Below, piece by piece: positions 32,815 through 64,000 of a stretch of 64,000 bases of DNA. The position numbers and the translations under genes were made by a program. Every line of letters begins with the position of its first letter. The stretch's first letter is position 1. The notes beneath the pieces are model-generated. The model was given only the letters and a program-made list of their open reading frames with translations. It ran no database searches and was not told where the DNA came from. The DNA is from Escherichia phage ALITA: sequence record PP359570. One strand, given 5' to 3'.

Positions 32815-33792
32815 TTAAGCAACAGTCTGGTCTTCTTTTTCAGGGAAGATTAAACTTGCAATAACACCCAACCCAAGAGTACCTAACACAATATACATAC
32901 TGATCGTCGGATCAATGTGTGCTGGCAGGAAACTCACTTTTGCGTGCAGAGTTTCTGCAAACGGATGATACATCAGTTTTACACCCACAAACACCAGGAC
33001 TACGATAACTGCTTTCTCCAGATGAACCAAATACTTCAGTGCAACACTAAGAACAAAGAACAGAGCACGTAAACCTAAGATTGCACAAAGCATCGAAGAG
33101 AACACCAGCAGAGGTTCTTGTGTCACTGCAATTACTGCTGGAACAGAGTCTACTGCAAAGATTACGTCTACCATTTCCATTACAAACACACAAACCAGAG
33201 CCGGAGTTGCTACACGAACACCATTTTTGATTGTGAAGAACTTCTCACCATCCATCTGATCAGATACAGGGAACAGCTTACGAACAATACGAGTAGCCCA
33301 GTGTTTAGAGTAATCAATTTCTGCATCATTATCCCCAGCGAATACCATTTTAGCCGCACAGAAAAGGATGACAGCACCGAAGAAGATATTAACATACCAG
33401 CCCAAACTCAACAAGTAAGTACCTACTGCTACAAACACACCTCGGAAGACAATTGCACCTGCAATACCCCAAAGTAGAATCTTGTGCTGCAAGTGTGTGC
33501 TTTTAATACCAAAACTTGCGAAGACTGCCACAAATACTACTAAGTTATCTACAGAAAGAGATTTCTCCAACACATAACCACTCAAGAACAAGCTCGCAAA
33601 ATCAGCACCGTGTTGGAAGTATACAAAACCATAGTAGGCTAATGATACCCCAATCCAGAAAATTGACCAGCCAATTGCAGATTTAAATGAGATCTCTTTG
33701 TTTTCTCTGTGTCCAAAGAAGTCAATACAAATCGACAAGACTAAAATACCCACTAAAACAACCACATCAATAATTGGGAAACCCAGTTGCAT
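32815..33792 (-). CDS. TerC-family integral membrane protein
   Basis: 325 aa, multi-pass; motifs EKSLSVDNLVVFVAVF and IFAVDSVPAVIAVTQEPLLVFSSMLCAILGLRALFF. Confidence 0.85.
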   Translation of the reverse strand: MQLGFPIIDVVVLVGILVLSICIDFFGHRENKEISFKSAIGWSIFWIGVSLAYYGFVYFQHGADFASLFLSGYVLEKSLSVDNLVVFVAVFASFGIKSTHLQHKILLWGIAGAIVFRGVFVAVGTYLLSLGWYVNIFFGAVILFCAAKMVFAGDNDAEIDYSKHWATRIVRKLFPVSDQMDGEKFFTIKNGVRVATPALVCVFVMEMVDVIFAVDSVPAVIAVTQEPLLVFSSMLCAILGLRALFFVLSVALKYLVHLEKAVIVVLVFVGVKLMYHPFAETLHAKVSFLPAHIDPTISMYIVLGTLGLGVIASLIFPEKEDQTVA

Positions 33793-33810
33793 TCTTTTCT
33801 CCTCTTTAAT

Positions 33811-33829
33811 GCGGAGGACAATCCTCCGC
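33811..33829 (-). promoter_or_regulatory. Hairpin upstream of TerC gene
   Basis: GCGGAGGA-CAAT-CCTCCGC. Confidence 0.35.
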
Positions 33830-33869
33830 TCTATGTCTTATACTATAAACTGTTTTTAAAGAAAGTCAA

Positions 33870-54328: not shown

Positions 54329-55735
54329 ATGCCAGCACCAAAATCATGGGAACAATATAAAGAAGAATTAACACCCCTTGCTAAAAATCACAACATTCAG
54401 ATTCTGGGTTATATTGGTGAATGGAAAGGGAGCAAGACTAAACTTAAGCTATCTTGCTCTGATCATGGGGAGTGGGAAAGTACCATAATCAATAGCTTTA
54501 AAACTAAAGGCGGTAAATGTTGCCCCGATTGCAATGGTCGTAGAAAAGTAACAGAAGAAAAGGAATGTATTTCCCTTGTTGATGTTGCTAAAGAAAGAGG
54601 GTTTACTTTTATAGGTCTTGCCGAAGAGTGGCGAGGTGTGCTAACAAAAATCCGCATAGTTTGCCCTAAACATGGAGAGTGGAACACCACGACCATTAGT
54701 GGTTTTAGGAAGGGACGTGGTTGTCCGGCATGTGCAAGTAATAAGCCGTTAACATGGGAAACAGAATTACCGATCTTGGAAGAGATAGCACAGAAGAAGG
54801 GGTATCAGGTGTTAGGGTACGTGGGAGAATGGAAAGGGATTGATACAAAACTTGATTTGTTGTGTCACTGTGGTAACAGATGGGATACTACAAGTATTAA
54901 CAGTTTTAAACATGATCATGGTTGTCCTTTATGTGGGTATGAGAATACAAGGAAGGCACAAACAATACCCGACGATCAACATATTGCAGATTTCTTTTCT
55001 ACAGGGAAATTTAAGGAAGGCACTATCTTTACCAATACAGGGAAACGTAGTTGTAGTAAAAACAAGGACATTATCTGGATGATCGAATGTCCTGTTTGCT
55101 CTCATGATGAGTATGTGCAAGCAGGTGTATGTGATGGTAAGTTTTATATGACACGTAGCGATCTTAAGGCTGGACACTTGCCCTGCCGCTGTGCAACTAA
55201 CTCTCATTATACAGAAAATCAGATTACCTACAGGGTAAAAAAGGAAGTAGAAGGGAGAGGGTATGTCTGGGTAGGTTGGATCGGTAAACCGTCTATAAGA
55301 CTGGGTAATTTTAAATATCTTTGTCTTGTTCATGGGGAACAAATTGGTAGTGCTTATCGCTTACTATATCAGGATAATGGTTGTCCACAATGTGCAGGTC
55401 ATAGTCAGCAGCAATTGTATGTTAATGTTGTTAAAGATAATGGTATTATAGTTGCTCTTAAGTTTGGTATATCTAAAGATAGTGCTAGGAGATTAAACAT
55501 TCAAAATAGGCGTAATATGTTTTTTATGGAGCGTATTTGTTTATATGATTTTAGTACAGTGAAGCAGTGTAAGGCTGCTGAAAGAGCTATAAAGAAAAAA
55601 TTAAAAACTGGTATCTTAACAGCAAGAGAGTTGAAAGATGGTTATACAGAAACAGTAAGTGTTTCTGATTTGGAAAATCTTCAAAAAATTATTACACAAT
55701 ATGGTGGCAAATTAGTATACAGTAAGGAGGTGTAA
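54329..55735 (+). CDS. Zinc-ribbon repeat protein with C-terminal T5orf172/GIY-YIG-like domain
   Basis: 468 aa; four or more repeats of C..HGEW...F...GCP.C; C-terminal LYVNVVKDNGIIVALKFGIS...RRL block. Confidence 0.55.
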   Translation: MPAPKSWEQYKEELTPLAKNHNIQILGYIGEWKGSKTKLKLSCSDHGEWESTIINSFKTKGGKCCPDCNGRRKVTEEKECISLVDVAKERGFTFIGLAEEWRGVLTKIRIVCPKHGEWNTTTISGFRKGRGCPACASNKPLTWETELPILEEIAQKKGYQVLGYVGEWKGIDTKLDLLCHCGNRWDTTSINSFKHDHGCPLCGYENTRKAQTIPDDQHIADFFSTGKFKEGTIFTNTGKRSCSKNKDIIWMIECPVCSHDEYVQAGVCDGKFYMTRSDLKAGHLPCRCATNSHYTENQITYRVKKEVEGRGYVWVGWIGKPSIRLGNFKYLCLVHGEQIGSAYRLLYQDNGCPQCAGHSQQQLYVNVVKDNGIIVALKFGISKDSARRLNIQNRRNMFFMERICLYDFSTVKQCKAAERAIKKKLKTGILTARELKDGYTETVSVSDLENLQKIITQYGGKLVYSKEV

Positions 55736-56287
55736 ATGCGGATTACTGATAAGTATGTGTTCTTCTTCTCGGCAAAAGATGAATTTAGCAACTGGTATCT
55801 ATCATCTTTTATTGAACCTTTAGCTCCCAAGTATAATAATTCTATTACAAGTTCTGTTGAATTTACTTGTGTGGAACAATATATGATGTGGAGAAAAGCA
55901 TGTTTGTTTTATGATTACAGTATTGCATCTTCTATTTTAACCGGAGATCTAAGATATACAGGAGAAAAAGAACAAGCATATTATAAACGACTAGGCAGAT
56001 TAGTTAAAGATTATGATGAAGATACCTGGGCTTCTTTACGGGAGAAGATTGTCAAGCGTGGTTTGTATCTTAAATACACACAAAATGAAGATCTCAAAAA
56101 TAAACTTATCGCTTACGCAGATAAGGAGTTCGTAGAGGCAAGCCCCTATGATTCTATTTATGGTATCAAAATGGGGATGTGGGATCGGGACGTGGAAAAT
56201 AAGGATTGTTGGAAAGGGCAAAATCTTTTAGGAAAATGGCATACAGACCTTGCTGTTTATCTAAAATCACAATCTGATATTTCCTGA
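55736..56287 (+). CDS. NADAR (YbiA/DUF1768)-family protein
   Basis: 183 aa; strong SD AAGGAGG; blocks FFFSAKDEFSNW, VEQYMMWRKACLF, LGRLV, FVEASPYDSIYGIKMG alignable to E. coli YbiA. Confidence 0.75.
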   Translation: MRITDKYVFFFSAKDEFSNWYLSSFIEPLAPKYNNSITSSVEFTCVEQYMMWRKACLFYDYSIASSILTGDLRYTGEKEQAYYKRLGRLVKDYDEDTWASLREKIVKRGLYLKYTQNEDLKNKLIAYADKEFVEASPYDSIYGIKMGMWDRDVENKDCWKGQNLLGKWHTDLAVYLKSQSDIS

Positions 56288-56506
56288 TATTTTGAAAATT
56301 TTTATTTTTATAAAAAGGGGTGTGGGTTTCATGTACGGAAATCCACCCTCTGAATAATATATCCAGAGTAAGTAGTATTCTGTACTCTGTTAATAAAGTA
56401 TTTAATTTGTTTGTTGGATTATGGTGGCTGATCTTTAAAAGGCATACTATCTCTTAACTACTACTTATAACAAAACAGTAAAATCCTTTTTATAAAAGTA
56501 CAAAAT

Positions 56507-56703
56507 TATTTAAAGTTTTTACAGATTTTCGGGTACAAATTTTGAAAATGAAAAGTTCAAGTTTGGTCAAAATTATTTAAAGTTTTTGTACGTATTTCTG
56601 TCCAGATTTTGAAAATGAAAACTTCAATTTTTTAAAAATTCCCCAGTTTATTTAAAGTTTTTTTGCCTTTTTCCGTAGAAAAATCAAAAATGAAAAGTTC
56701 AAT
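56507..56703. repeat. Three tandem direct repeats (~55-60 bp) in noncoding region
   Basis: Each unit starts TTATTTAAAGTTTTT and ends GAAAATGAAAAGTTCAA with a variable centre. Confidence 0.8.
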
Positions 56704-56724
56704 TTCGTGTTTTTATAGGTGTGT

Positions 56725-56841
56725 TAATGAGAATCATTTTCGTTTGTAAATGAGAATCATTATCATTTAACTATGTAAGTGATAATCATTCTCAGTAAGA
56801 GAATGAGAATCATTAGCAAATGAGAATTTTTCTCATTTACA
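56725..56841. promoter_or_regulatory. Cluster of five palindromic sites with Fur-box-like core (candidate repressor sites or origin iterons)
   Basis: AATGAGAATCATT variants; AATGAGAATCATTATCATT and GTGATAATCATTCTCAG; last copy is perfect inverted repeat AAATGAGAA-TTT-TTCTCATTT. Confidence 0.6.
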
Positions 56842-57098
56842 GAATAACGCGCAGGGGCGGTGTTTGTCTCGCGCTCCCGTGTCCCCTCGCCATACAATAA
56901 GAATAGCATAACCAATAACAAAAGCAAGCGATTATTTTTATCTTTACATTTCTTTACAAATTTATTTTAGACGAGCTACCGGCGATCAACCTTCCAACCA
57001 GTGCCCCCTGGTATGTTAGCCCCGCCTTTACGCCGTGGGGTGGCGTTTCCTCTTCTGTATGTAAAACAGTATAAGCCCGATCCCTGGGCTTGTCAAGA

Positions 57099-57365
57099 TT
57101 ATTTTTTGTTTTCTTGCCAGGATAGGACACCTAACCAAAAATACATGTCGCCCCGCGCCCCTGGTGGGATCTTGCTTTCCCCGCCGCCACTGCAAGCCCA
57201 TAAATAACCATCAGCGAACGGATCAAAGTGATCTATCTCTTCCACCTTATGATCGCCCAGGTTGAGAACGGTTTCAACCTTTAAGCCCGTTGCGCTTGCT
57301 ACCTGGTGCACCGTGCCGCCTTGCCAGCCCAGTGAGTGCATGAGATGTAAAGAAGTATTTGTCAT
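57099..57365 (-). CDS. Hypothetical protein, divergent from early array, GC-rich codon usage
   Basis: 88-aa ORF; hairpin AGCCCAGGGATCGGGCT downstream. Confidence 0.4.
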   Translation of the reverse strand: MTNTSLHLMHSLGWQGGTVHQVASATGLKVETVLNLGDHKVEEIDHFDPFADGYLWACSGGGESKIPPGARGDMYFWLGVLSWQENKK

Positions 57366-57736
57366 GGTATCGCCCTTTCTTTGTTGTGCGCCCTGGTTGG
57401 CGCGGTAGAAAGATGATAGCCGTTTCCTTCATATATAGCAAGCAAAAAAGAAATGAAAAAAAGATTAAAAAATGGTTGACGTTCCTCACCTGGTAGCGTA
57501 GTATTCATCTTGTCGAGGGGGGCAAGACACAACGACAATAAACAATAGGCGGGTGCAATGCAAGACGGGCAAAGGTGAGGATCTCCACAATCCACCGTCA
57601 CAATAACATTACTTATAAAAGGTTGATAACGATGATCAAGAAAGAAAATAGCTTGACGGTTGGAACGATTAACGCTATCATTCTTGCCGTTCCATTTTGG
57701 ATTGTAGTTGCGGTTATTATTTTCTAAAAAAATATT

Positions 57737-57764
57737 CTTGACAACGTTTTTTAATCTGATAAGA
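57737..57764 (+). promoter_or_regulatory. Sigma70-like promoter
   Basis: TTGACA-16-TAAGAT, followed by leader hairpin 57775-57794. Confidence 0.6.
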
Positions 57765-57817
57765 TGTATCACATAGGGCGGCAATAGTGCCGCTCATAAC
57801 AGAAGAGAGAAATAATC

Positions 57818-58090
57818 ATGGCATCATATAGCGCATCAATGATTGTAAAGGGTATCACTGGTAAACCTATGCGCGGTGGCGGATCTTTCGCTAACATCAA
57901 TATTGATGGACGTTTATCCCTGGACGCAGCGATCACAGTGGCACGGGAAACATTTAAAAAAGAATGTAATTTCAATAAACAAGATTATCTCGGTTTTGCT
58001 ATTGAAAAAACCGCGCGCTTTGTGGATTATAAAAGCCCGAAAATGATCGACACTACACTAAAAGCGCAAGATGTAGCGTTTTTGCTTTAA
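57818..58090 (+). CDS. Hypothetical early protein
   Basis: 90 aa; promoter-hairpin-SD unit upstream. Confidence 0.55.
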   Translation: MASYSASMIVKGITGKPMRGGGSFANINIDGRLSLDAAITVARETFKKECNFNKQDYLGFAIEKTARFVDYKSPKMIDTTLKAQDVAFLL

Positions 58091-58093
58091 GAC

Positions 58094-58122
58094 TTGACAC
58101 TGAAAAATAATTTGATAATATA
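58094..58122 (+). promoter_or_regulatory. Sigma70-like promoter
   Basis: TTGACA-17-TAATAT, leader hairpin GGCGGGGAAATGGTTTCCCGCC at 58133-58154. Confidence 0.6.
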
Positions 58123-58176
58123 TACCACATAAGGCGGGGAAATGGTTTCCCGCCAAATCAAAGAAAGGGTAATGCA

Positions 58177-58539
58177 ATGAGCAAGCAAATCAATACTATC
58201 ATGTTTAATCTGGTATCTTTCCGCGATGACGTGAAAAACCTTTCGCGTGATGCAGTGGATGCACGGATCGAAAGCTATCGCACACAGATCGCAACGTTAC
58301 CGCTGAAACGTGATCAACATGCCGCTAATATGATGCTTGATGCTATGATTAAAAAGATGATTCAATGTGATCTTACCCTGGCTTATGAATATGCTGGCGA
58401 TCTCTTTGTAACATATAGCAAGCCCGTTCCAGGTATGAGCACCACGGAAGAATTGCATGCCTTAAATCTGCGACAAGATGCATGGGATAACATGCGCCGT
58501 GTTATGGTATGGGTAGAAAGCGGTAAAATTTACGAATAA
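58177..58539 (+). CDS. Hypothetical early protein
   Basis: 120-aa ORF. Confidence 0.55.
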   Translation: MSKQINTIMFNLVSFRDDVKNLSRDAVDARIESYRTQIATLPLKRDQHAANMMLDAMIKKMIQCDLTLAYEYAGDLFVTYSKPVPGMSTTEELHALNLRQDAWDNMRRVMVWVESGKIYE

Positions 58540-58545
58540 AAACGG

Positions 58546-58573
58546 TTGACATTGCACTAAAACCTGATAAGCT
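58546..58573 (+). promoter_or_regulatory. Sigma70-like promoter
   Basis: TTGACA-16-TAAGCT, hairpin AGCGGGAATAGTTCCCGCT 58581-58599. Confidence 0.55.
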
Positions 58574-58617
58574 ATCTTAAAGCGGGAATAGTTCCCGCTT
58601 ACATAGGATAAAACTTT

Positions 58618-58764
58618 ATGAAACAATATGTAATGAGTATTCACACCAAAAACGGCGCTACTGTTACGACTCCGGCACGGTTTGCACTTGTAAACCGTTG
58701 CAAGAGACTAAAACGAGAGCTAAAAAACAACCGTGCAACGGGCTTTAAACGCTGGGGAGGATAA
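58618..58764 (+). CDS. Small basic protein
   Basis: 48 aa, below ORF-track cutoff. Confidence 0.35.
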   Translation: MKQYVMSIHTKNGATVTTPARFALVNRCKRLKRELKNNRATGFKRWGG

Positions 58765-58766
58765 TC

Positions 58767-59027
58767 TTGTTTTTTCTAAAAGTTTTTGATAATGTGATCG
58801 CTTTTGAACATGCTACAACGTTCGACCTGGCGAGATACGCTATCAGGTTTAAAGATAATGTTTATCCCCGTGCTGGCGGCGGTTACACTATTTTTAATCA
58901 TCGCAACGCGCAACTAACTGATATAACTAATCCAGATCCTGGAGTGTATCGGATAGGCTGGCTACCGTCAAAAGATGCGGCAAGCATGTTTAAGGTATGT
59001 AAACTACTAACAGAAGAGGCGAACTAA
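58767..59027 (+). CDS. Hypothetical protein (TTG start)
   Basis: 86 aa; SD GGGGAGG 9 nt before TTG; coupled to upstream small ORF. Confidence 0.4.
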   Translation: MFFLKVFDNVIAFEHATTFDLARYAIRFKDNVYPRAGGGYTIFNHRNAQLTDITNPDPGVYRIGWLPSKDAASMFKVCKLLTEEAN

Positions 59028-59028
59028 C

Positions 59029-59583
59029 ATGGGGCGTGAATATGTGATCCAGTCCTGGGTAAAGCATGATGCTAATGATCCGCGCATAATACCAGATGAC
59101 ATGATCGATCACATGGTAGGGTATAGCGGGGAGCAGATAGGAAATCGAGCGGCAAAGAGCAACGGCAACACCAGGACGCGATCCGTTCGCCCTGGATGGC
59201 TGGCAAATGGTAACGCTGACATTGCAAGCGCCGCAGATCCAAGCGATGACGCTAAAAATAATCCCTTATACAGTATTGATCCGGCTTTTAAGGTGTTGGA
59301 AGAGTATCCCGCTAAATTAGCCGCACTAGATAAAGCATACGAAGAAAAACGGGTGGCATGGACTGTATACAACACCGCTAAAATGGTGCTAGATGCAAAA
59401 TTGATTAAAGCCCAGGAGAAGATCAATAAACTTGTTACCATAGCGCAAGAGGAAGACCAGGACGACCAGGAGGAAGAGGAAGAAATCATGCCTAACCTGG
59501 AAGAGGAAGAGATCCAGCCATACACGCCGACAGAAGAGGAAAAAATACAAGCCTTAAAAAATTATAAAAATTGTATTGTGTAA
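59029..59583 (+). CDS. Hypothetical protein with acidic D/E-rich C-terminal tail
   Basis: 184 aa; EEDQDDQEEEEEIMPNLEEEE. Confidence 0.5.
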   Translation: MGREYVIQSWVKHDANDPRIIPDDMIDHMVGYSGEQIGNRAAKSNGNTRTRSVRPGWLANGNADIASAADPSDDAKNNPLYSIDPAFKVLEEYPAKLAALDKAYEEKRVAWTVYNTAKMVLDAKLIKAQEKINKLVTIAQEEDQDDQEEEEEIMPNLEEEEIQPYTPTEEEKIQALKNYKNCIV

Positions 59584-59586
59584 GGC

Positions 59587-59615
59587 TTGACATATGCAAA
59601 CAAGCCCCGTAATAT
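59587..59615 (+). promoter_or_regulatory. Sigma70-like promoter
   Basis: TTGACA-17-TAATAT. Confidence 0.5.
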
Positions 59616-59663
59616 GTACCACATAGAGCGGGGCAACCCCCTCAAAGGTGAAATAAAAATCAC

Positions 59664-59691
59664 TTGACAACTGAAATCAGTAAGCTATAAT
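59664..59691 (+). promoter_or_regulatory. Sigma70 consensus-like promoter
   Basis: TTGACA-16-TATAAT. Confidence 0.65.
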
Positions 59692-59728
59692 GCTTATATA
59701 AATTAAAGCGTTACTAAGGAATAAAATC

Positions 59729-60094
59729 ATGGCTAAAAATATCAATGTTTCTGCTTATGCTACCCTGGCTAACACTGCTAAAATTGAACTATCCAGCATT
59801 GAAGCGGTACATATTAGCGCCCGTCGCTGGTTTCAAAAGTCTTATGGTAATACTTATTTCTCTTTGATGGTTGACGTTGAGATCGGCGGTAAACTGATTG
59901 AAGTCGTTAACGTTCCGTTTCAATATGGTTATGGTGATCATTTTGATACCGTTGCCCTAGAAGAGTTTAGCAAGGTTATCAACCTGGAAGGTAAAGACTT
60001 TTCAAATTATGCTTACCTTTCCCGTTTTTGCCGTGATAATGGGATCGCTGTATACAGTCATGCAAGCGATGTTAAACGTAAAAAAGATTTATAA
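59729..60094 (+). CDS. Hypothetical early protein
   Basis: 121 aa, SD AAGGA. Confidence 0.55.
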   Translation: MAKNINVSAYATLANTAKIELSSIEAVHISARRWFQKSYGNTYFSLMVDVEIGGKLIEVVNVPFQYGYGDHFDTVALEEFSKVINLEGKDFSNYAYLSRFCRDNGIAVYSHASDVKRKKDL

Positions 60095-60100
60095 AAAGTA

Positions 60101-60128
60101 TTGACAGCACGAATAAAAAGCGTAAAAT
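60101..60128 (+). promoter_or_regulatory. Sigma70-like promoter
   Basis: TTGACA-16-TAAAAT, hairpin GGGGGAACGGTTTCCCC 60144-60160. Confidence 0.6.
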
Positions 60129-60183
60129 GTTTTATATCAGGACGGGGGAACGGTTTCCCCTCCTAACAAAGAGAGAAATAAAA

Positions 60184-60366
60184 ATGGCTAAATGCACTAT
60201 CTGTAAGAAAGAAATAGTATTAGTTCCAAGCGCCCGTGAACGTGCCGCTAAGTTTGGTGGCAAACCGTCAGACTATACAAAAATGTTCACTACCCATGCA
60301 GCTTGCCAGGTAGCGAAACGTTCACAAGAAAGCGTAGAATTAATGCGTAAACTTTCCAAAAAATAA
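60184..60366 (+). CDS. Small Cys-containing protein
   Basis: Start at ATG after SD (MAKCTICKK...), 60 aa. Confidence 0.5.
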   Translation: MAKCTICKKEIVLVPSARERAAKFGGKPSDYTKMFTTHAACQVAKRSQESVELMRKLSKK

Positions 60367-60368
60367 TA

Positions 60369-60396
60369 TTGACAAAGTATTTTATTACTATATAAT
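60369..60396 (+). promoter_or_regulatory. Sigma70 consensus-like promoter
   Basis: TTGACA-16-TATAAT, hairpin GCGGGAATAGTTCCCGC 60411-60427. Confidence 0.65.
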
Positions 60397-60451
60397 GGTT
60401 TACATCGAGAGCGGGAATAGTTCCCGCCTCACTGAAAAAGAGATTAACATC

Positions 60452-60691
60452 ATGGCTAAATCTAAAATGTACAACGGTCACAAAAACAAAACTCATTGGA
60501 ATGTAAGCCTTTGGATCAACAACGATGAAGGTTTTTATAATCTTGCGCGTGAATTTATCGCAGCTAACACCAATAAGAATGACGCAGCGCGGGATATGAT
60601 GTTATTTCTTGAAAGTATGGATCAAGATAAAACGCCAGACGGTTACAAGTTCAGTAAAACTGCAATCCGTGCCGCTATGGTTGGAATGTAA
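60452..60691 (+). CDS. Hypothetical early protein
   Basis: 79-aa ORF. Confidence 0.55.
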   Translation: MAKSKMYNGHKNKTHWNVSLWINNDEGFYNLAREFIAANTNKNDAARDMMLFLESMDQDKTPDGYKFSKTAIRAAMVGM

Positions 60692-60786
60692 AGGAGACAT
60701 AAAAATGAAACATCGTTCGACCTATCTGACAAAACGTTTTAGCTTAGATCATAAATTAGGCTATTACGGAAGAAATAGAAAATAAT

Positions 60787-60814
60787 TTGACAACGTTTAA
60801 AATTAGTGTAAGAT
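60787..60814 (+). promoter_or_regulatory. Sigma70-like promoter
   Basis: TTGACA-16-TAAGAT, hairpin GGGCGGGAAATGGTTTCCCGCC 60826-60846. Confidence 0.6.
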
Positions 60815-60868
60815 GTATCACATAGGGCGGGAAATGGTTTCCCGCCAAATCAAAGAAAGGTTATCATT

Positions 60869-61096
60869 ATGGCTATCGTTATTGTTCGCGTATCCGGTAC
60901 GGTTGGGATCTCCCAGGTAGTAGCAGTTATCACCGAGAAGAAAGGAGATGATCTTCACTCCTCCTTGAATAGCTGGGCGGTCGCTAACTTTGGGCAATGG
61001 TCGAGCGTTGAGTACATCGAATCCTACCAGGTGCCAACGATTAGCCTAACCGATCTAAATGTTGATCGCTTGTTGTGCCTGGATCAATTAAACTAA
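60869..61096 (+). CDS. Hypothetical early protein
   Basis: 75-aa ORF. Confidence 0.5.
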   Translation: MAIVIVRVSGTVGISQVVAVITEKKGDDLHSSLNSWAVANFGQWSSVEYIESYQVPTISLTDLNVDRLLCLDQLN

Positions 61097-61104
61097 AAAT
61101 AATA

Positions 61105-61132
61105 TTGACAAGATAACTAAAATCAGTAAAAT
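61105..61132 (+). promoter_or_regulatory. Sigma70-like promoter
   Basis: TTGACA-16-TAAAAT, hairpin GGGCGGCAATAGTGCCGCTC 61143-61162. Confidence 0.6.
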
Positions 61133-61183
61133 GTAATGCATAGGGCGGCAATAGTGCCGCTCCTAGTGAGAGAGATTATCAAG

Positions 61184-61399
61184 ATGGCTAATATCCGCAC
61201 ACTGTTAAAAAATGCAAGTCAAGTTTTATTTTCAGATGACGAGTATTTCAACAAAGACATTACAGGCGTGAAAAATTTAAAAGACGTGAAGGATGTTATC
61301 GGTATCCGTGGATCTTTACGTAAAGGTGACATATACGGTAACAAGGTGCAATATAAACTGTCAAAAGATTATGATTTTACTTTGACATTTATTTCATAA
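61184..61399 (+). CDS. Hypothetical early protein
   Basis: Start at ATG after SD (MANIRT...), 71 aa. Confidence 0.5.
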   Translation: MANIRTLLKNASQVLFSDDEYFNKDITGVKNLKDVKDVIGIRGSLRKGDIYGNKVQYKLSKDYDFTLTFIS

Positions 61400-61405
61400 A
61401 ACCGC

Positions 61406-61433
61406 TTGCAATACTGCAAAAATAAAGTAAACT
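61406..61433 (+). promoter_or_regulatory. Sigma70-like promoter
   Basis: TTGCAA-16-TAAACT, hairpin GGCGGTGGAATAGCCCACCGCC 61446-61467. Confidence 0.45.
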
Positions 61434-61489
61434 GTATTCATCAAGGCGGTGGAATAGCCCACCGCCTAACAAAGAGAAGAGGAAACATC

Positions 61490-61660
61490 ATGATCACTTT
61501 CGCTACCCGTGAAGCCGCTCGCAACGTTGCACGTAAAGTTAACGCCGCCAACCTGGGCGCTACGCTTAAAGCCCCGGTAAAAGATGAATCAGGTAAATGG
61601 ATCTTCCCTGGTCTGCGTCACGCTGATAAGCTGGGAACGTTAACGCTAAAAAATAAATAA
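61490..61660 (+). CDS. Small basic protein
   Basis: 56 aa. Confidence 0.45.
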   Translation: MITFATREAARNVARKVNAANLGATLKAPVKDESGKWIFPGLRHADKLGTLTLKNK

Positions 61661-61667
61661 AATCCGC

Positions 61668-61696
61668 TTGACAGTAGCATCATTTATAAGTAAAGT
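61668..61696 (+). promoter_or_regulatory. Sigma70-like promoter
   Basis: TTGACA-17-TAAAGT, hairpin GGCGGGAAATGGTTTCCCGCC 61706-61726. Confidence 0.5.
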
Positions 61697-61746
61697 AACA
61701 ACAACGGCGGGAAATGGTTTCCCGCCATCAATAAAGAGATAAGATC

Positions 61747-62106
61747 ATGAAATCAGTAAAAGCAATTAAAACTTACATTGTGTCGGCTATTTCTTTTGAT
61801 GGTACTACAACCGAAAAAGAAAAGATCACCGAACTGATGCGCCGTTTTAACTCTGAATACTGGTATCCCGATAATCAAAAACGTTACAATTATAACGTGA
61901 TCAAGGCAATAGCCTCATGGTTACAAGGTTTACCGTCAGAAATCAATATTGCTTTTGATTATAACGAGATCGATCACTTGTTAATTGAATGGAAGTACAT
62001 AAAAGAAACAAGCAAAGAAACAACCGTTACCCGTGAGCGGGAAAATTATTGGTTATATATTGCAAGCATGATCGTAATCCTGGCAAAACAGCATAACGCG
62101 GCGTAA
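61747..62106 (+). CDS. Hypothetical early protein
   Basis: 119-aa ORF. Confidence 0.55.
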   Translation: MKSVKAIKTYIVSAISFDGTTTEKEKITELMRRFNSEYWYPDNQKRYNYNVIKAIASWLQGLPSEINIAFDYNEIDHLLIEWKYIKETSKETTVTRERENYWLYIASMIVILAKQHNAA

Positions 62107-62120
62107 TTAAGAGGAAAAAA

Positions 62121-62258
62121 CATGAACGCATCACAGCAGATCGAAAAATTCAACCGCAGCAAGGCGCGTAAAGATTGGAACGAAGAGATCACCAAAAAAG
62201 GCGACAAGCGGAACAAAACAAAAAGAGATCGCAGCACAAAAAGATACTGGAACGAATA
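62121..62258 (+). CDS. Small highly basic protein
   Basis: 45 aa, K/R-rich, SD AAGAGGA; followed by terminator. Confidence 0.35.
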
Positions 62259-62260
62259 AC

Positions 62261-62289
62261 AAAAAGGGCGCAATAAGCGCCCTTTTAGC
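62261..62289 (+). terminator. Intrinsic terminator
   Basis: AAAAAGGGCGC-AATA-AGCGCCCTTTTAGC. Confidence 0.8.
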
Positions 62290-62376
62290 TTATATAGAGG
62301 CTTGTTACCCATAGGCAATGGTAACGCCAGGGCAAGCCTATAAATCAACGTTAGACGGCTTTACAGGAGCTTTAAA

Positions 62377-62559
62377 ATGAGATTAGAAGAAATAAGCAAG
62401 GCACTAGCCCAGGGGCAAAGGTTAAACGCCCGTTATCGTGATCAATATGGCTTCATAACTAGCGGCGTGATCCTGGGGATTGAAGGCAATAAGATTTTTA
62501 TTGACACGTTGAAAAACGTTGTATATAGTGACAATATAATCTCAATAAAACATATATGA
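62377..62559 (+). CDS. Hypothetical small protein
   Basis: 60 aa, SD CAGGAGC. Confidence 0.4.
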   Translation: MRLEEISKALAQGQRLNARYRDQYGFITSGVILGIEGNKIFIDTLKNVVYSDNIISIKHI

Positions 62560-62567
62560 GGCAAGAA

Positions 62568-62969
62568 ATGAAAAAATTATTGATCGCTGGTTTAATCTCT
62601 TTTGGCATGGTTGGAACATCTAGCGCGGCGATATCCTCCACAGTAGCAGAATTAAGCGCCGTTGATGCAATGGAAAACGTCATGCTTATTAATAATGCGA
62701 TCCCCGATGAAATCATGGAGGATTCACACATGATCGCTTATGGTGCTGTTACACAACTAACGGCAAAAATAGATAAATCTATTGTTAATGGCTTAAATGA
62801 AGATGTACCATGTGAAATTATTACCAGTGTGCTCACTACTCAAAATTTTACGCCGTGGTTAAAAAGTATTCAAAAAGTACACAGTACAGCCGCAGATCGT
62901 AGCAATGAAAAACTAGTGTCAGCACTTGCAACGTATACCCTAGCAAAATGCACTGAAATAAAAGATTGA
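62568..62969 (+). CDS. Secreted/periplasmic small protein
   Basis: Start at MKKLL after SD GAGG; signal peptide LIAGLISFGMVGTSSAAIS. Confidence 0.5.
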   Translation: MKKLLIAGLISFGMVGTSSAAISSTVAELSAVDAMENVMLINNAIPDEIMEDSHMIAYGAVTQLTAKIDKSIVNGLNEDVPCEIITSVLTTQNFTPWLKSIQKVHSTAADRSNEKLVSALATYTLAKCTEIKD

Positions 62970-62994
62970 CAGCATAGAAAGCACGTTATAAGAT
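62966..62994 (+). promoter_or_regulatory. Sigma70-like promoter
   Basis: TTGACA-17-TAAGAT. Confidence 0.5.
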
Positions 62995-63016
62995 ACACAC
63001 AACAAAGGAGAACTAC

Positions 63017-63319
63017 ATGAACGGCATAGCTAAAACGTTTTTTCTTTTTTCTGGTGTAAATGATCCATCAATAAAAGTCGATAGTGTAAAAGAAAACAAT
63101 ACTATCACCGCTAAATTGTTTCAAGATGAAACAAATAACGTGCTAATCATTAATCTTAAAGAAATAACTAAAGGTTATTATACTATTGCTTACCATGCGA
63201 TCTATCATGCTGGTACTAGCGAGGAAGTGCAAACAAGCAACAACGAAAGCGCGGCGCTACCTGGTGATCTGGTGCTGGGTGTTATTAGTTTAATTGTCAA
63301 TGATTTTTTTAAGGAGTAA
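63017..63319 (+). CDS. Hypothetical protein
   Basis: 100 aa, SD AAAGGAG. Confidence 0.5.
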   Translation: MNGIAKTFFLFSGVNDPSIKVDSVKENNTITAKLFQDETNNVLIINLKEITKGYYTIAYHAIYHAGTSEEVQTSNNESAALPGDLVLGVISLIVNDFFKE

Positions 63320-63577
63320 AACCATGCCCTATTTACATTTATTTTTCGGGATCTTATTGTCAGGATCTTTTTTCTTCTGTATGCTTGTTTCTATTGTAAA
63401 CCACGTTTTAAGACATTAAGGAAACAGCATGAAAATTATTCCCGTACAATATAGCGTAATAAATCCAGCATATGAGGAAGGAAGGAAAACAAGCATGGCT
63501 TTATGTTGTATTGTTACTATAGCCATGTTGTTATATATTGTGTTTTAATAGGTTTTATAGTTGTACGCTTTAAAGGC

Positions 63578-63605
63578 TTGACAATTTTTTGTTATGCTTT
63601 AAAAT
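63578..63605 (+). promoter_or_regulatory. Sigma70-like promoter
   Basis: TTGACA-16-TAAAAT. Confidence 0.5.
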
Positions 63606-63648
63606 ATATCTTGAAAACGGCAAAGGCCGCAAACAAAAGGGTAAAATT

Positions 63649-63972
63649 ATGAAATCTGTGATCGGTGTTTATTTGGATAACTCTGATTTTTTCTATCATC
63701 GCGCGCGTTTACTTGATGCTATTGAAATGATAGAATCAGGCTTTAAAGAGTATCGCCTTGCACATGATGACCTGGAAGCATTACAGGGCAATAGTGTTTT
63801 TACATTGCAAGCGAAAGCACTATGCAAAAGCCGGATCGAGATTGCAAGTAAAAAGATAGAGCGCGGCATGTCCTGGTTACGCACCGCAGAAATCAACATG
63901 GGGCAATGGTACGGCAAAAACTTAGAAAATAAACATGCTTTTGTAAATGTAGAAAATATTGAAGATTATTGA
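63649..63972 (+). CDS. Hypothetical protein
   Basis: Start at internal ATG (MKSVIGVY...) downstream of promoter. Confidence 0.45.
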   Translation: MKSVIGVYLDNSDFFYHRARLLDAIEMIESGFKEYRLAHDDLEALQGNSVFTLQAKALCKSRIEIASKKIERGMSWLRTAEINMGQWYGKNLENKHAFVNVENIEDY

Positions 63973-64000
63973 TTGACAGCACACCTGATAAGGAGTATAT

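Follow-up and report, generated by a model that had tools for sequence, protein, structure and literature searches.

Cassettes resembling the promoter-early stem-loops of T4-like phages precede immediate-early genes of Escherichia phage ALITA

Introduction

The T4-like phages RB49/phi1, PST/T4, and nt-1/KVP40 carry promoter-early stem-loop (PeSL) cassettes (Arbiol et al. 2010, PMC2839356; Comeau et al. 2014, PMC4122927). To judge from organization and evolutionary behavior shared at the sequence level, these are the closest described system to the element reported here, a repeated promoter-plus-hairpin unit that precedes early genes in a 64,000-nt stretch of Escherichia phage ALITA (sequence record PP359570; this whole stretch is referred to below as the window). 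A PeSL combines a consensus early promoter, a stem-loop, and a Shine-Dalgarno (SD) sequence with an ATG, lies ahead of ORFans in hyperplastic regions, and mediates modular shuffling (PMC2839356). Its stem-loop has been assigned the role of a terminator or attenuator and cut expression of a downstream lacZ gene to the same degree as rrnB T1 (PMC2839356), and the formation of mini-circles is a further trait of the system (Arbiol 2010, PMC2839356). In all five published PeSL subclasses, the stem lies at or before the transcription start site, whether in the AT-rich region, the -35 element, the spacer, or the -10 element or directly ahead of +1 (PMC2839356). We met the name PeSL only in T4-related literature. 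The papers on rV5 and BME3 do not mention the element described here; the phi92 genome paper (Schwarzer 2012) was outside our coverage, and an earlier description is possible.

Stabilization by a 5'-terminal stem-loop is an established principle, as cited in PMC3997798 (Emory, Bouvet and Belasco 1992; Bouvet and Belasco 1992). The ompA and papA leaders of E. coli and the T7 gene 10 leader share with the ALITA units a stable hairpin near the predicted 5' end, an unstructured leader, and a strong ribosome-binding site (RBS). Those leaders are single, unrelated, and without a common sequence, whereas the cassette is a sequence-conserved family joined to a promoter, with about 10 to 17 copies per genome and a presumed stabilizing role. 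The T7 gene 10 leader starts with a stem-loop. In the work of Emory and of Bouvet and Belasco, only a few unpaired 5' nucleotides are said to be tolerated.

Sequence identity assigns the window to a phi92-like myovirus of the genus Justusliebigvirus: positions 57700-61800 are 95 to 97% identical to phages VEcB, BME3, inny, alia, and Paula and match phi92 gp226-gp236. This region opens an approximately 22-kb plus-strand block of small hypothetical genes, the early block, which is preceded by a repeat-rich noncoding region. We describe an array of units in this region that very probably forms a PeSL-like cassette family.

Results

A first-pass annotation of the window had claimed ten GC-rich hairpins at 57775-61726, each between a -10 element and an RBS. 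Reading and scanning the sequence located all ten at the claimed places, and sequence analysis confirmed their position relative to both elements. What that annotation overlooked is the whole promoter-to-start-codon cassette of about 90 bp around the hairpin. Once units had been listed in relatives and aligned with a covariance model, the hairpin proved to be one component of a repeated module that runs, in order, through an A/T-rich upstream sequence, the -35 and -10 elements, the motif CAYRTAG, a stem, a loop, an A-rich stretch, an SD sequence, and an ATG. The ten promoters of the array are near-consensus for sigma70 (TTGACA in nine and TTGCAA in one, a spacer of 16 to 17, TAnnnT) and have A/T-rich upstream sequences. 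The range of 57775-61726 given for a family of ten members stands for these ten, but an eleventh unit lies on the minus strand at 33869-33811.

Spacing within the cassette is nearly fixed. The gap from the -10 element to the first paired base, claimed to be about 10 nt, is 9 to 11 nt in nine copies and 6 to 8 nt at 58580. The distance of 15 to 25 nt proposed between hairpin and start codon agrees with the 16 to 22 nt separating stem end and ATG in nine copies, but it does not apply to the hairpin at 59626-59643, which leads no gene. Among 55 units from six phages, the gap between -10 and stem is mostly 9 to 11 nt and that between stem and ATG mostly 17 to 23 nt. The sequence variants listed earlier are likewise present as reported: GGCGGG(G)AAATGGTTTCCCGCC occurs three times (58133, 60826, 61706), GCGGGAATAGTTCCCGC twice (58582, 60411), GGGCGGCAATAGTGCCGCTC twice (57776, 61143), and GGCGGTGGAATAGCCCACCGCC once (61445). 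The two remaining copies, at 59626-59643 and 60139-60164, are weaker, bulged stems.

These arrangements occur far more often than chance would give. A strict scan for promoters with a perfect hairpin behind them gave 7 instances in the window, against a mean of 0.03 and a maximum of 1 in 100 dinucleotide shuffles. The predicted RNA stability of the hairpins ranges from -10 to -18.7 kcal/mol, and eight of the ten, together with the minus-strand copy, are more stable than any of their 200 dinucleotide shuffles; the bulged copies at 59626 and 60139 do not surpass all 200. The four basal stem pairs, GCGG/CCGC, are invariant in 36 to 38 of 38 distinct sequences. The inner stem comprises 2 to 5 pairs that differ among copies (C-G, G-C, A-T, or T-A), and the loop of 3 to 6 nt is mostly (A)AT(A/G)G. 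No relevant match to an Rfam 15 covariance model was obtained at E<=1 in 55000-64000. Cassette open reading frames (ORFs) often start with ATGGCTAA. The mutually unrelated ORFs at 59729, 60184, 60452, 60869, and 61184 begin with ATGGCTAA or ATGGCTAT (Met-Ala-Lys/Asn/Ile), so the similarity between cassettes extends into the first codons. The units and the terminator that closes the array are as follows.

Unit 1, 57738..57817, plus strand: TTGACA-16-TAAGAT at 57738-57765, CACATA, hairpin GGGCGGCAATAGTGCCGCTC at 57776-57795, A-rich leader and SD; ORF 57818-58090.
Unit 2, 58094..58176, plus strand: TTGACA-16-TAATAT at 58094-58121; hairpin at 58133-58154; ORF 58177-58539.
Unit 3, 58546..58617, plus strand: TTGACA-16-TAAGCT at 58546-58573; hairpin AAGCGGGAATAGTTCCCGCTT at 58580-58600; ORF 58618-58764.
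Unit 4, 59587..59663, plus strand, gene-less remnant: TTGACA-17-TAATAT at 59587-59615; imperfect hairpin GAGCGGGGCAACCCCCTC at 59626-59643; E=0.16 with covariance model R1.
Unit 5, 60101..60183, plus strand: TTGACA-16-TAAAAT at 60101-60128; bulged hairpin at 60139-60164; ORF 60184-60366.
Unit 6, 60369..60451, plus strand: TTGACA-16-TATAAT at 60369-60396; hairpin GAGAGCGGGAATAGTTCCCGCCTC at 60407-60430; ORF 60452-60691 (DUF7249).
Unit 7, 60787..60868, plus strand: TTGACA-16-TAAGAT at 60787-60814; hairpin GGCGGGAAATGGTTTCCCGCC at 60826-60846; ORF 60869-61096.
Unit 8, 61105..61183, plus strand: TTGACA-16-TAAAAT at 61105-61132; hairpin at 61143-61162, extendable to 61138-61167; ORF 61184-61399.
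Unit 9, 61406..61489, plus strand: TTGCAA-16-TAAACT at 61406-61433; hairpin AGGCGGTGGAATAGCCCACCGCCT at 61444-61467; ORF 61490-61660.
Unit 10, 61668..61746, plus strand: TTGACA-17-TAAAGT at 61668-61696; hairpin at 61706-61726; ORF 61747-62106.
Unit 11, 33790..33869, minus strand: promoter at 33869-33842, CATAGA, hairpin GCGGAGGATTGTCCTCCGC at 33829-33811, SD, ATG at about 33792.
Canonical bidirectional terminator, 62262-62286, no strand assigned: AAAAGGGCGC-AATAA-GCGCCCTTTT; closes the array.

Unit 4 heads no gene: the hairpin-less promoter at 59664-59691 intervenes before the next ORF (59729-60094), which starts 85 nt beyond the unit 4 hairpin. At the unit 4 site, Paula and alia carry one more ORF, of 180 nt, and they lack the unit 5 cassette. 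Unit 11 sits 5' of a gene for a TerC-like membrane protein and is kept in alia. The early promoters at 59664, 62501, 62966, and 63578, which have no hairpin, are also without CAYRTAG. Those beyond the terminator at 62262-62286 (62501, 62966, and 63578) are of equal strength, so the early block has at least two promoter-leader classes.

Pairing in the stem was evaluated on an alignment derived from the covariance model, containing 38 distinct copies from six phages. Standard pairs occupy 94.3% of cells, compared with 42 to 59% when the 3' partner is slid by 1 to 3 columns; both-sided changes occur at five of the nine pairs (29 cells), and the covariation score is 0.293, compared with 0.156 after shuffling (reached in 0 of 500 shuffles). 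These numbers lean towards structure because the model guided the alignment and the copies are related to one another. A control that needs no alignment gave the same picture: chimeras with swapped arms averaged -9.4 kcal/mol against -13.3 kcal/mol for native hairpins, and none of 1000 permutations reached the native mean. There are 25 distinct 5' arms, spanning several genera. The MAFFT alignments A1 and A3, in which the 3' arm was misregistered, were left out of the pair counts. The stems are thus kept in related phages with covariation, and the refutation named in the first-pass annotation, a lack of conservation, fails.

Several observations bear on whether the helix forms in RNA or in DNA. 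In the model alignment, 20 cells are of the G.U type and 7 of the A.C type, which leans to pairing in plus-strand RNA; a first strand-neutral count had given six C.A mismatches and one internal G.T. The asymmetric loop has one orientation relative to transcription in every copy, including the minus-strand one. The spacing between the GCGG and CCGC blocks varies within a single genome, and inner arms and loops differ between copies. Function at the RNA level is favored by these sequence patterns, and only favored, because C.A mismatches exist and the counts are not independent.

The cassette is confined to the immediate-early block. Within the window, the covariance model found no copy lacking a promoter. 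In the complete alia genome, all 12 to 15 copies fall at 78.25 to 86.55 kb, the first 8 kb or so of the early block, and one more, at 55.3 kb, precedes the TerC-like gene; the model found no copies in the structural or replication modules. The cassette ranges over Justusliebigvirus, Phapecoctavirus (about 17 copies in 29 kb of ESCO13), and Citrobacter phage Tr1 (about 9 copies), with a few copies in the Vequintavirinae; the Vequintavirus FV3 has 4 to 5 and the Certrevirus F1M1E a few. The architecture is not present in loci L005-L080, which surround homologues of gp231 with 30 to 40% identity. A module scan of IMG/VR returned mostly chance matches; 8 of 83 were real units, 7 on phi92-like contigs and 1 on a 16.5-kb contig. 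The ten downstream ORFs encode 48 to 184 aa and represent ten separate PHROG families, none of known function; one of the ORFs matches DUF7249. The 71-aa product of 61184-61399 (alia gp113) is labeled phosphoribosylpyrophosphate synthetase in the alia record and several others. Its only match is to a PHROG of unknown function, with none in Pfam, and hence the label is probably an over-annotation.

Comparison of the window with Paula, alia, and three IMG/VR relatives (L002 and L004 among them) placed all junctions of gene gain, loss, or replacement inside or at the edge of units, although breakpoint location alone is weak evidence because cassettes make up nearly all of the intergenic DNA in this region. 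One ORF that Paula and alia have but the window lacks has its junction at a common ATGGCTA. The window has an additional cassette, at about 60194-60460, that lies between 71-bp leader repeats. In L004, a replaced cassette extends from the upstream edge of promoter 1 to the -10 element of promoter 2, and an 87-bp indel ends 8 nt 5' of the unit 7 -35 element. The strong evidence for cassette recombination comes from the leader of Paula gp232, which base-level alignment resolves as a chimera: its -35 element and spacer match window unit 5, and its -10 element, hairpin, SD, and ATG match unit 6. This amounts to a promoter-to-promoter crossover that adds or removes exactly one gene. Since the cassettes are mutually similar, they probably act as sites of homologous recombination.

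The hairpins share a GC-rich stem of 7 to 10 bp and a short loop with Rho-independent terminators but differ in having no U-tract on the plus strand. As had been noted in the first-pass annotation, they are followed by A-rich sequence (A makes up 60% and T 11% of the 10 nt after the stems), and with only 0 to 2 T in the 10 nt after each stem, they do not qualify as intrinsic terminators. The phage has its own, different, canonical type in at least ten copies: an A-tract, a GC stem, a GNRA or UUCG-type loop, and a T-tract, exemplified by the terminator at 62262-62286 that ends the array. In the record of phage Paula (LR865361, L001 1928-5535), the leader hairpins are labeled as terminators and placed on the strand opposite that of all the genes. 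On the minus strand, only one of the ten hairpins passes a simple terminator scan, and no minus-strand genes converge on the array; the annotation is probably an artefact of automatic prediction.

Measured against PeSLs, the likeness lies in intergenic repeats of a sigma70 early promoter, AT-rich upstream sequence, a stable GC stem-loop, and the SD and start of a small ORFan, and also in clustering within a plastic early region where indels and replacements among close relatives break within modules. The differences concern phage group, geometry, and sequence. The cassettes described here occur in the Stephanstirmvirinae and Vequintavirinae, whereas PeSLs occur in the Straboviridae. The cassette stem begins 9 to 11 nt after the -10 element, inside the transcript predicted from the putative start site; in RB49, which we checked directly, stems occupy positions -23 to -5 or -13 to +6 counted from the -10 end. 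Cassette hairpins have no sequence relation to RB49/phi1 PeSLs, and when model R1 was run on RB49, its matches did not fall at PeSLs and the stem sequences were unrelated. Finally, PeSL stems are described as terminators or attenuators, whereas the hairpins here have A-rich tails. If our reading is true, promoter-plus-stem-loop shuffling cassettes are not peculiar to T4-like phages and would have arisen independently, with another placement of the hairpin, in a second large group of therapeutic-candidate coliphages, the relatives of phi92, phAPEC8, and rV5.

Discussion

We propose that the cassette probably protects early mRNAs and acts as a crossover point for gene swapping; this explanation, a 5' untranslated region (UTR) hairpin within an early expression cassette that both stabilizes the message and offers a recombination site, has as a whole a probability of roughly 0.5 in our judgment. 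Host sigma70 RNA polymerase would start about 7 nt past the -10 element, on the A residues within CAYRTAG, which would make the stem begin at about +3 to +6 and the hairpin occupy about +3 to +25 of each early mRNA, with an open A-rich leader carrying SD and AUG after it. Folding of full 5'-UTRs with the start set 7 nt after the -10 element left 0 to 5 unpaired 5' nt (median 4), with SD and AUG mostly open. The most likely effect of a hairpin in this place would be to shield the 5' end against 5'-end-dependent decay by RppH and RNase E, and it may insulate the translation initiation region from upstream sequence during read-through from a preceding promoter. Each immediate-early ORFan would then have its own very strong promoter, a 5' end that is protected, and an RBS that is both open and insulated, and homologous recombination between similar cassettes would allow single ORFan genes to be added, removed, or replaced. 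Of the three functions offered in the first-pass annotation (stabilization of 5' ends, nuclease processing sites, and operators for an RNA-binding regulator), the predicted geometry favors the first, and 5' stabilization is put forward as the main role of the hairpin only tentatively. If the hairpin is indeed inside the mRNA, the virus would give a whole class of takeover genes a standard, cap-like protective structure at the 5' end. The units are compact, self-contained, and very strong and might find use as parts in phage engineering, and genome annotators at present mislabel their hairpins as terminators.

Some observations weigh against this proposal. Both the start site, on which the hairpin's place inside the mRNA depends, and the stabilizing effect are predictions from sequence. 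RppH reportedly needs just 2 to 3 unpaired nucleotides, so with the 3 to 5 unpaired 5' nt of the modeled leaders, protection may be incomplete. The C.A mismatches that do occur are compatible only with the opposite strand, and the G.U and A.C counts represent nonindependent events. Four adjacent early promoters (59664, 62501, 62966, and 63578) have no hairpin. A pure stabilizer needs no particular sequence, yet GCGG/CCGC, the loop of A-A-U-R-G type, and CAYRTAG are strongly conserved; this extra conservation could stem from recent common descent or gene conversion between cassettes or from a sequence-specific partner.

It is unlikely, in our view, that the hairpin has a PeSL-type role and works on RNA that reads through from the cassette before it, either by attenuating or terminating transcription or by stopping 3' exonucleases. 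The units would then be monocistronic, and transcription would build up less from one end of the array to the other; no strong canonical terminators occur between 57.7 and 62.26 kb, and read-through is therefore expected. Stable hairpins can be obstacles to PNPase and RNase II, and the lacZ result with a PeSL stem-loop (PMC2839356) points the same way. This account is at odds with the A-rich tail lacking a U-tract and with the different, canonical hairpin type by which the phage terminates, and it leaves the fixed distance to the -10 element unexplained. Moreover, the hairpin lies in the cassette's own predicted transcript, where an efficient terminator would abort the cassette's own gene too.

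Somewhat less probable still is that the hairpin and its flank are a binding or cleavage site for a sequence-specific RNA-binding protein, of phage or host, that coregulates the immediate-early genes, for example, by joint shut-off after the early phase in analogy to T4 RegA and RegB. CAYRTAG-GCGG...(A)AURG...CCGC would then be the recognition element, and the immediate-early mRNAs of phi92- and rV5-type phages would form one posttranscriptional regulon, an idea to which we give equally little credence; a factor of this kind might keep these mRNAs safe while host mRNA is shut off or might silence them jointly at the early-to-middle switch. The conservation of GCGG/CCGC, loop, and CAYRTAG across several genera exceeds what pairing needs, and the element is limited to one temporal gene class. 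Variation of the inner stem (2 to 5 pairs) and loop (3 to 6 nt) is nevertheless awkward for a rigid recognition site, cassette duplication with gene conversion can account for the conservation, and no candidate protein was identified.

A role in DNA, as a palindromic repressor operator at about +3 to +25 or as a cruciform that promotes recombination, seems improbable, even though the palindromes are perfect or near-perfect and stand at the classical position of an operator, C.A mismatches are tolerated, and crossovers fall within units. The half-sites are at variable rather than fixed spacing: the distance between GCGG and CCGC varies by several bp and the inner arms differ within one genome, which is incompatible with a single dimeric DNA-binding protein. 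The asymmetric loop keeps a constant orientation to transcription, G.U is more frequent than A.C, and the mapped crossover falls in the promoter spacer or at the ATG, outside the stem.

Least probable of all, by a little, is a functionless hairpin that hitchhikes in a promoter cassette as the latter duplicates, recombines, and so spreads. The units are related in sequence and do recombine, and some early promoters work without a hairpin; pairing has nevertheless been retained through two-sided changes among the 25 distinct 5' arms of several genera, and only the gene-less remnant has a degenerate stem, which is what one would expect if a downstream gene were needed for selection on the stem.

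Other candidates were set aside by reasoning. Stems of 7 to 10 bp are too short for RNase III sites. Antitermination of the lambda boxB/nut kind does not fit genes that each have their own promoter or loops that are not GNRA-like pentaloops. DNA hairpin promoters of the N4 type are excluded by the presence of a sigma70 promoter, and we know of no virion RNA polymerase in this phage group. T4 Srd stimulates RNase E. A link to an Srd-like activator of RNase E was dropped because there is no Srd homologue in the window or in the complete alia genome; the rV5 paper terms gp11 Srd-like.

The approximately 1.4-kb noncoding stretch directly 5' of the array (56300-57740) contains iteron-like repeats: three direct repeats of about 70 nt each at 56487-56705 and four copies of a 41-nt unit of the GAGAATCATT type at 56706-56839, with a 24-nt inverted repeat (56745-56768/56818-56841) within the area of the 41-nt units. 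The alia record has repeat_region features over the matching stretch. From its sequence, this region could be a replication origin or a regulatory region. It also holds a near-consensus minus-strand promoter (57096-57068, TTGACA-17-TATACT) with a hairpin, AAGCCCAGGGATCGGGCTT, within its spacer, a geometry like that of RB49 PeSLs; this promoter is directed leftwards into the noncoding repeats, and its upstream and -35 segment, 57090-57107, is an 18-nt inverted copy of 57727-57744 of unit 1.

Seven to nine records named as Campylobacter phages (A145, A110a, A141, and A13b among them, with accessions MG065645, MG065689, MG065672, and MG065677; about 141 to 146 kb) match the coliphage family at 82 to 88% and have several cassettes. 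On this sequence evidence, the Campylobacter host label of these records looks doubtful.

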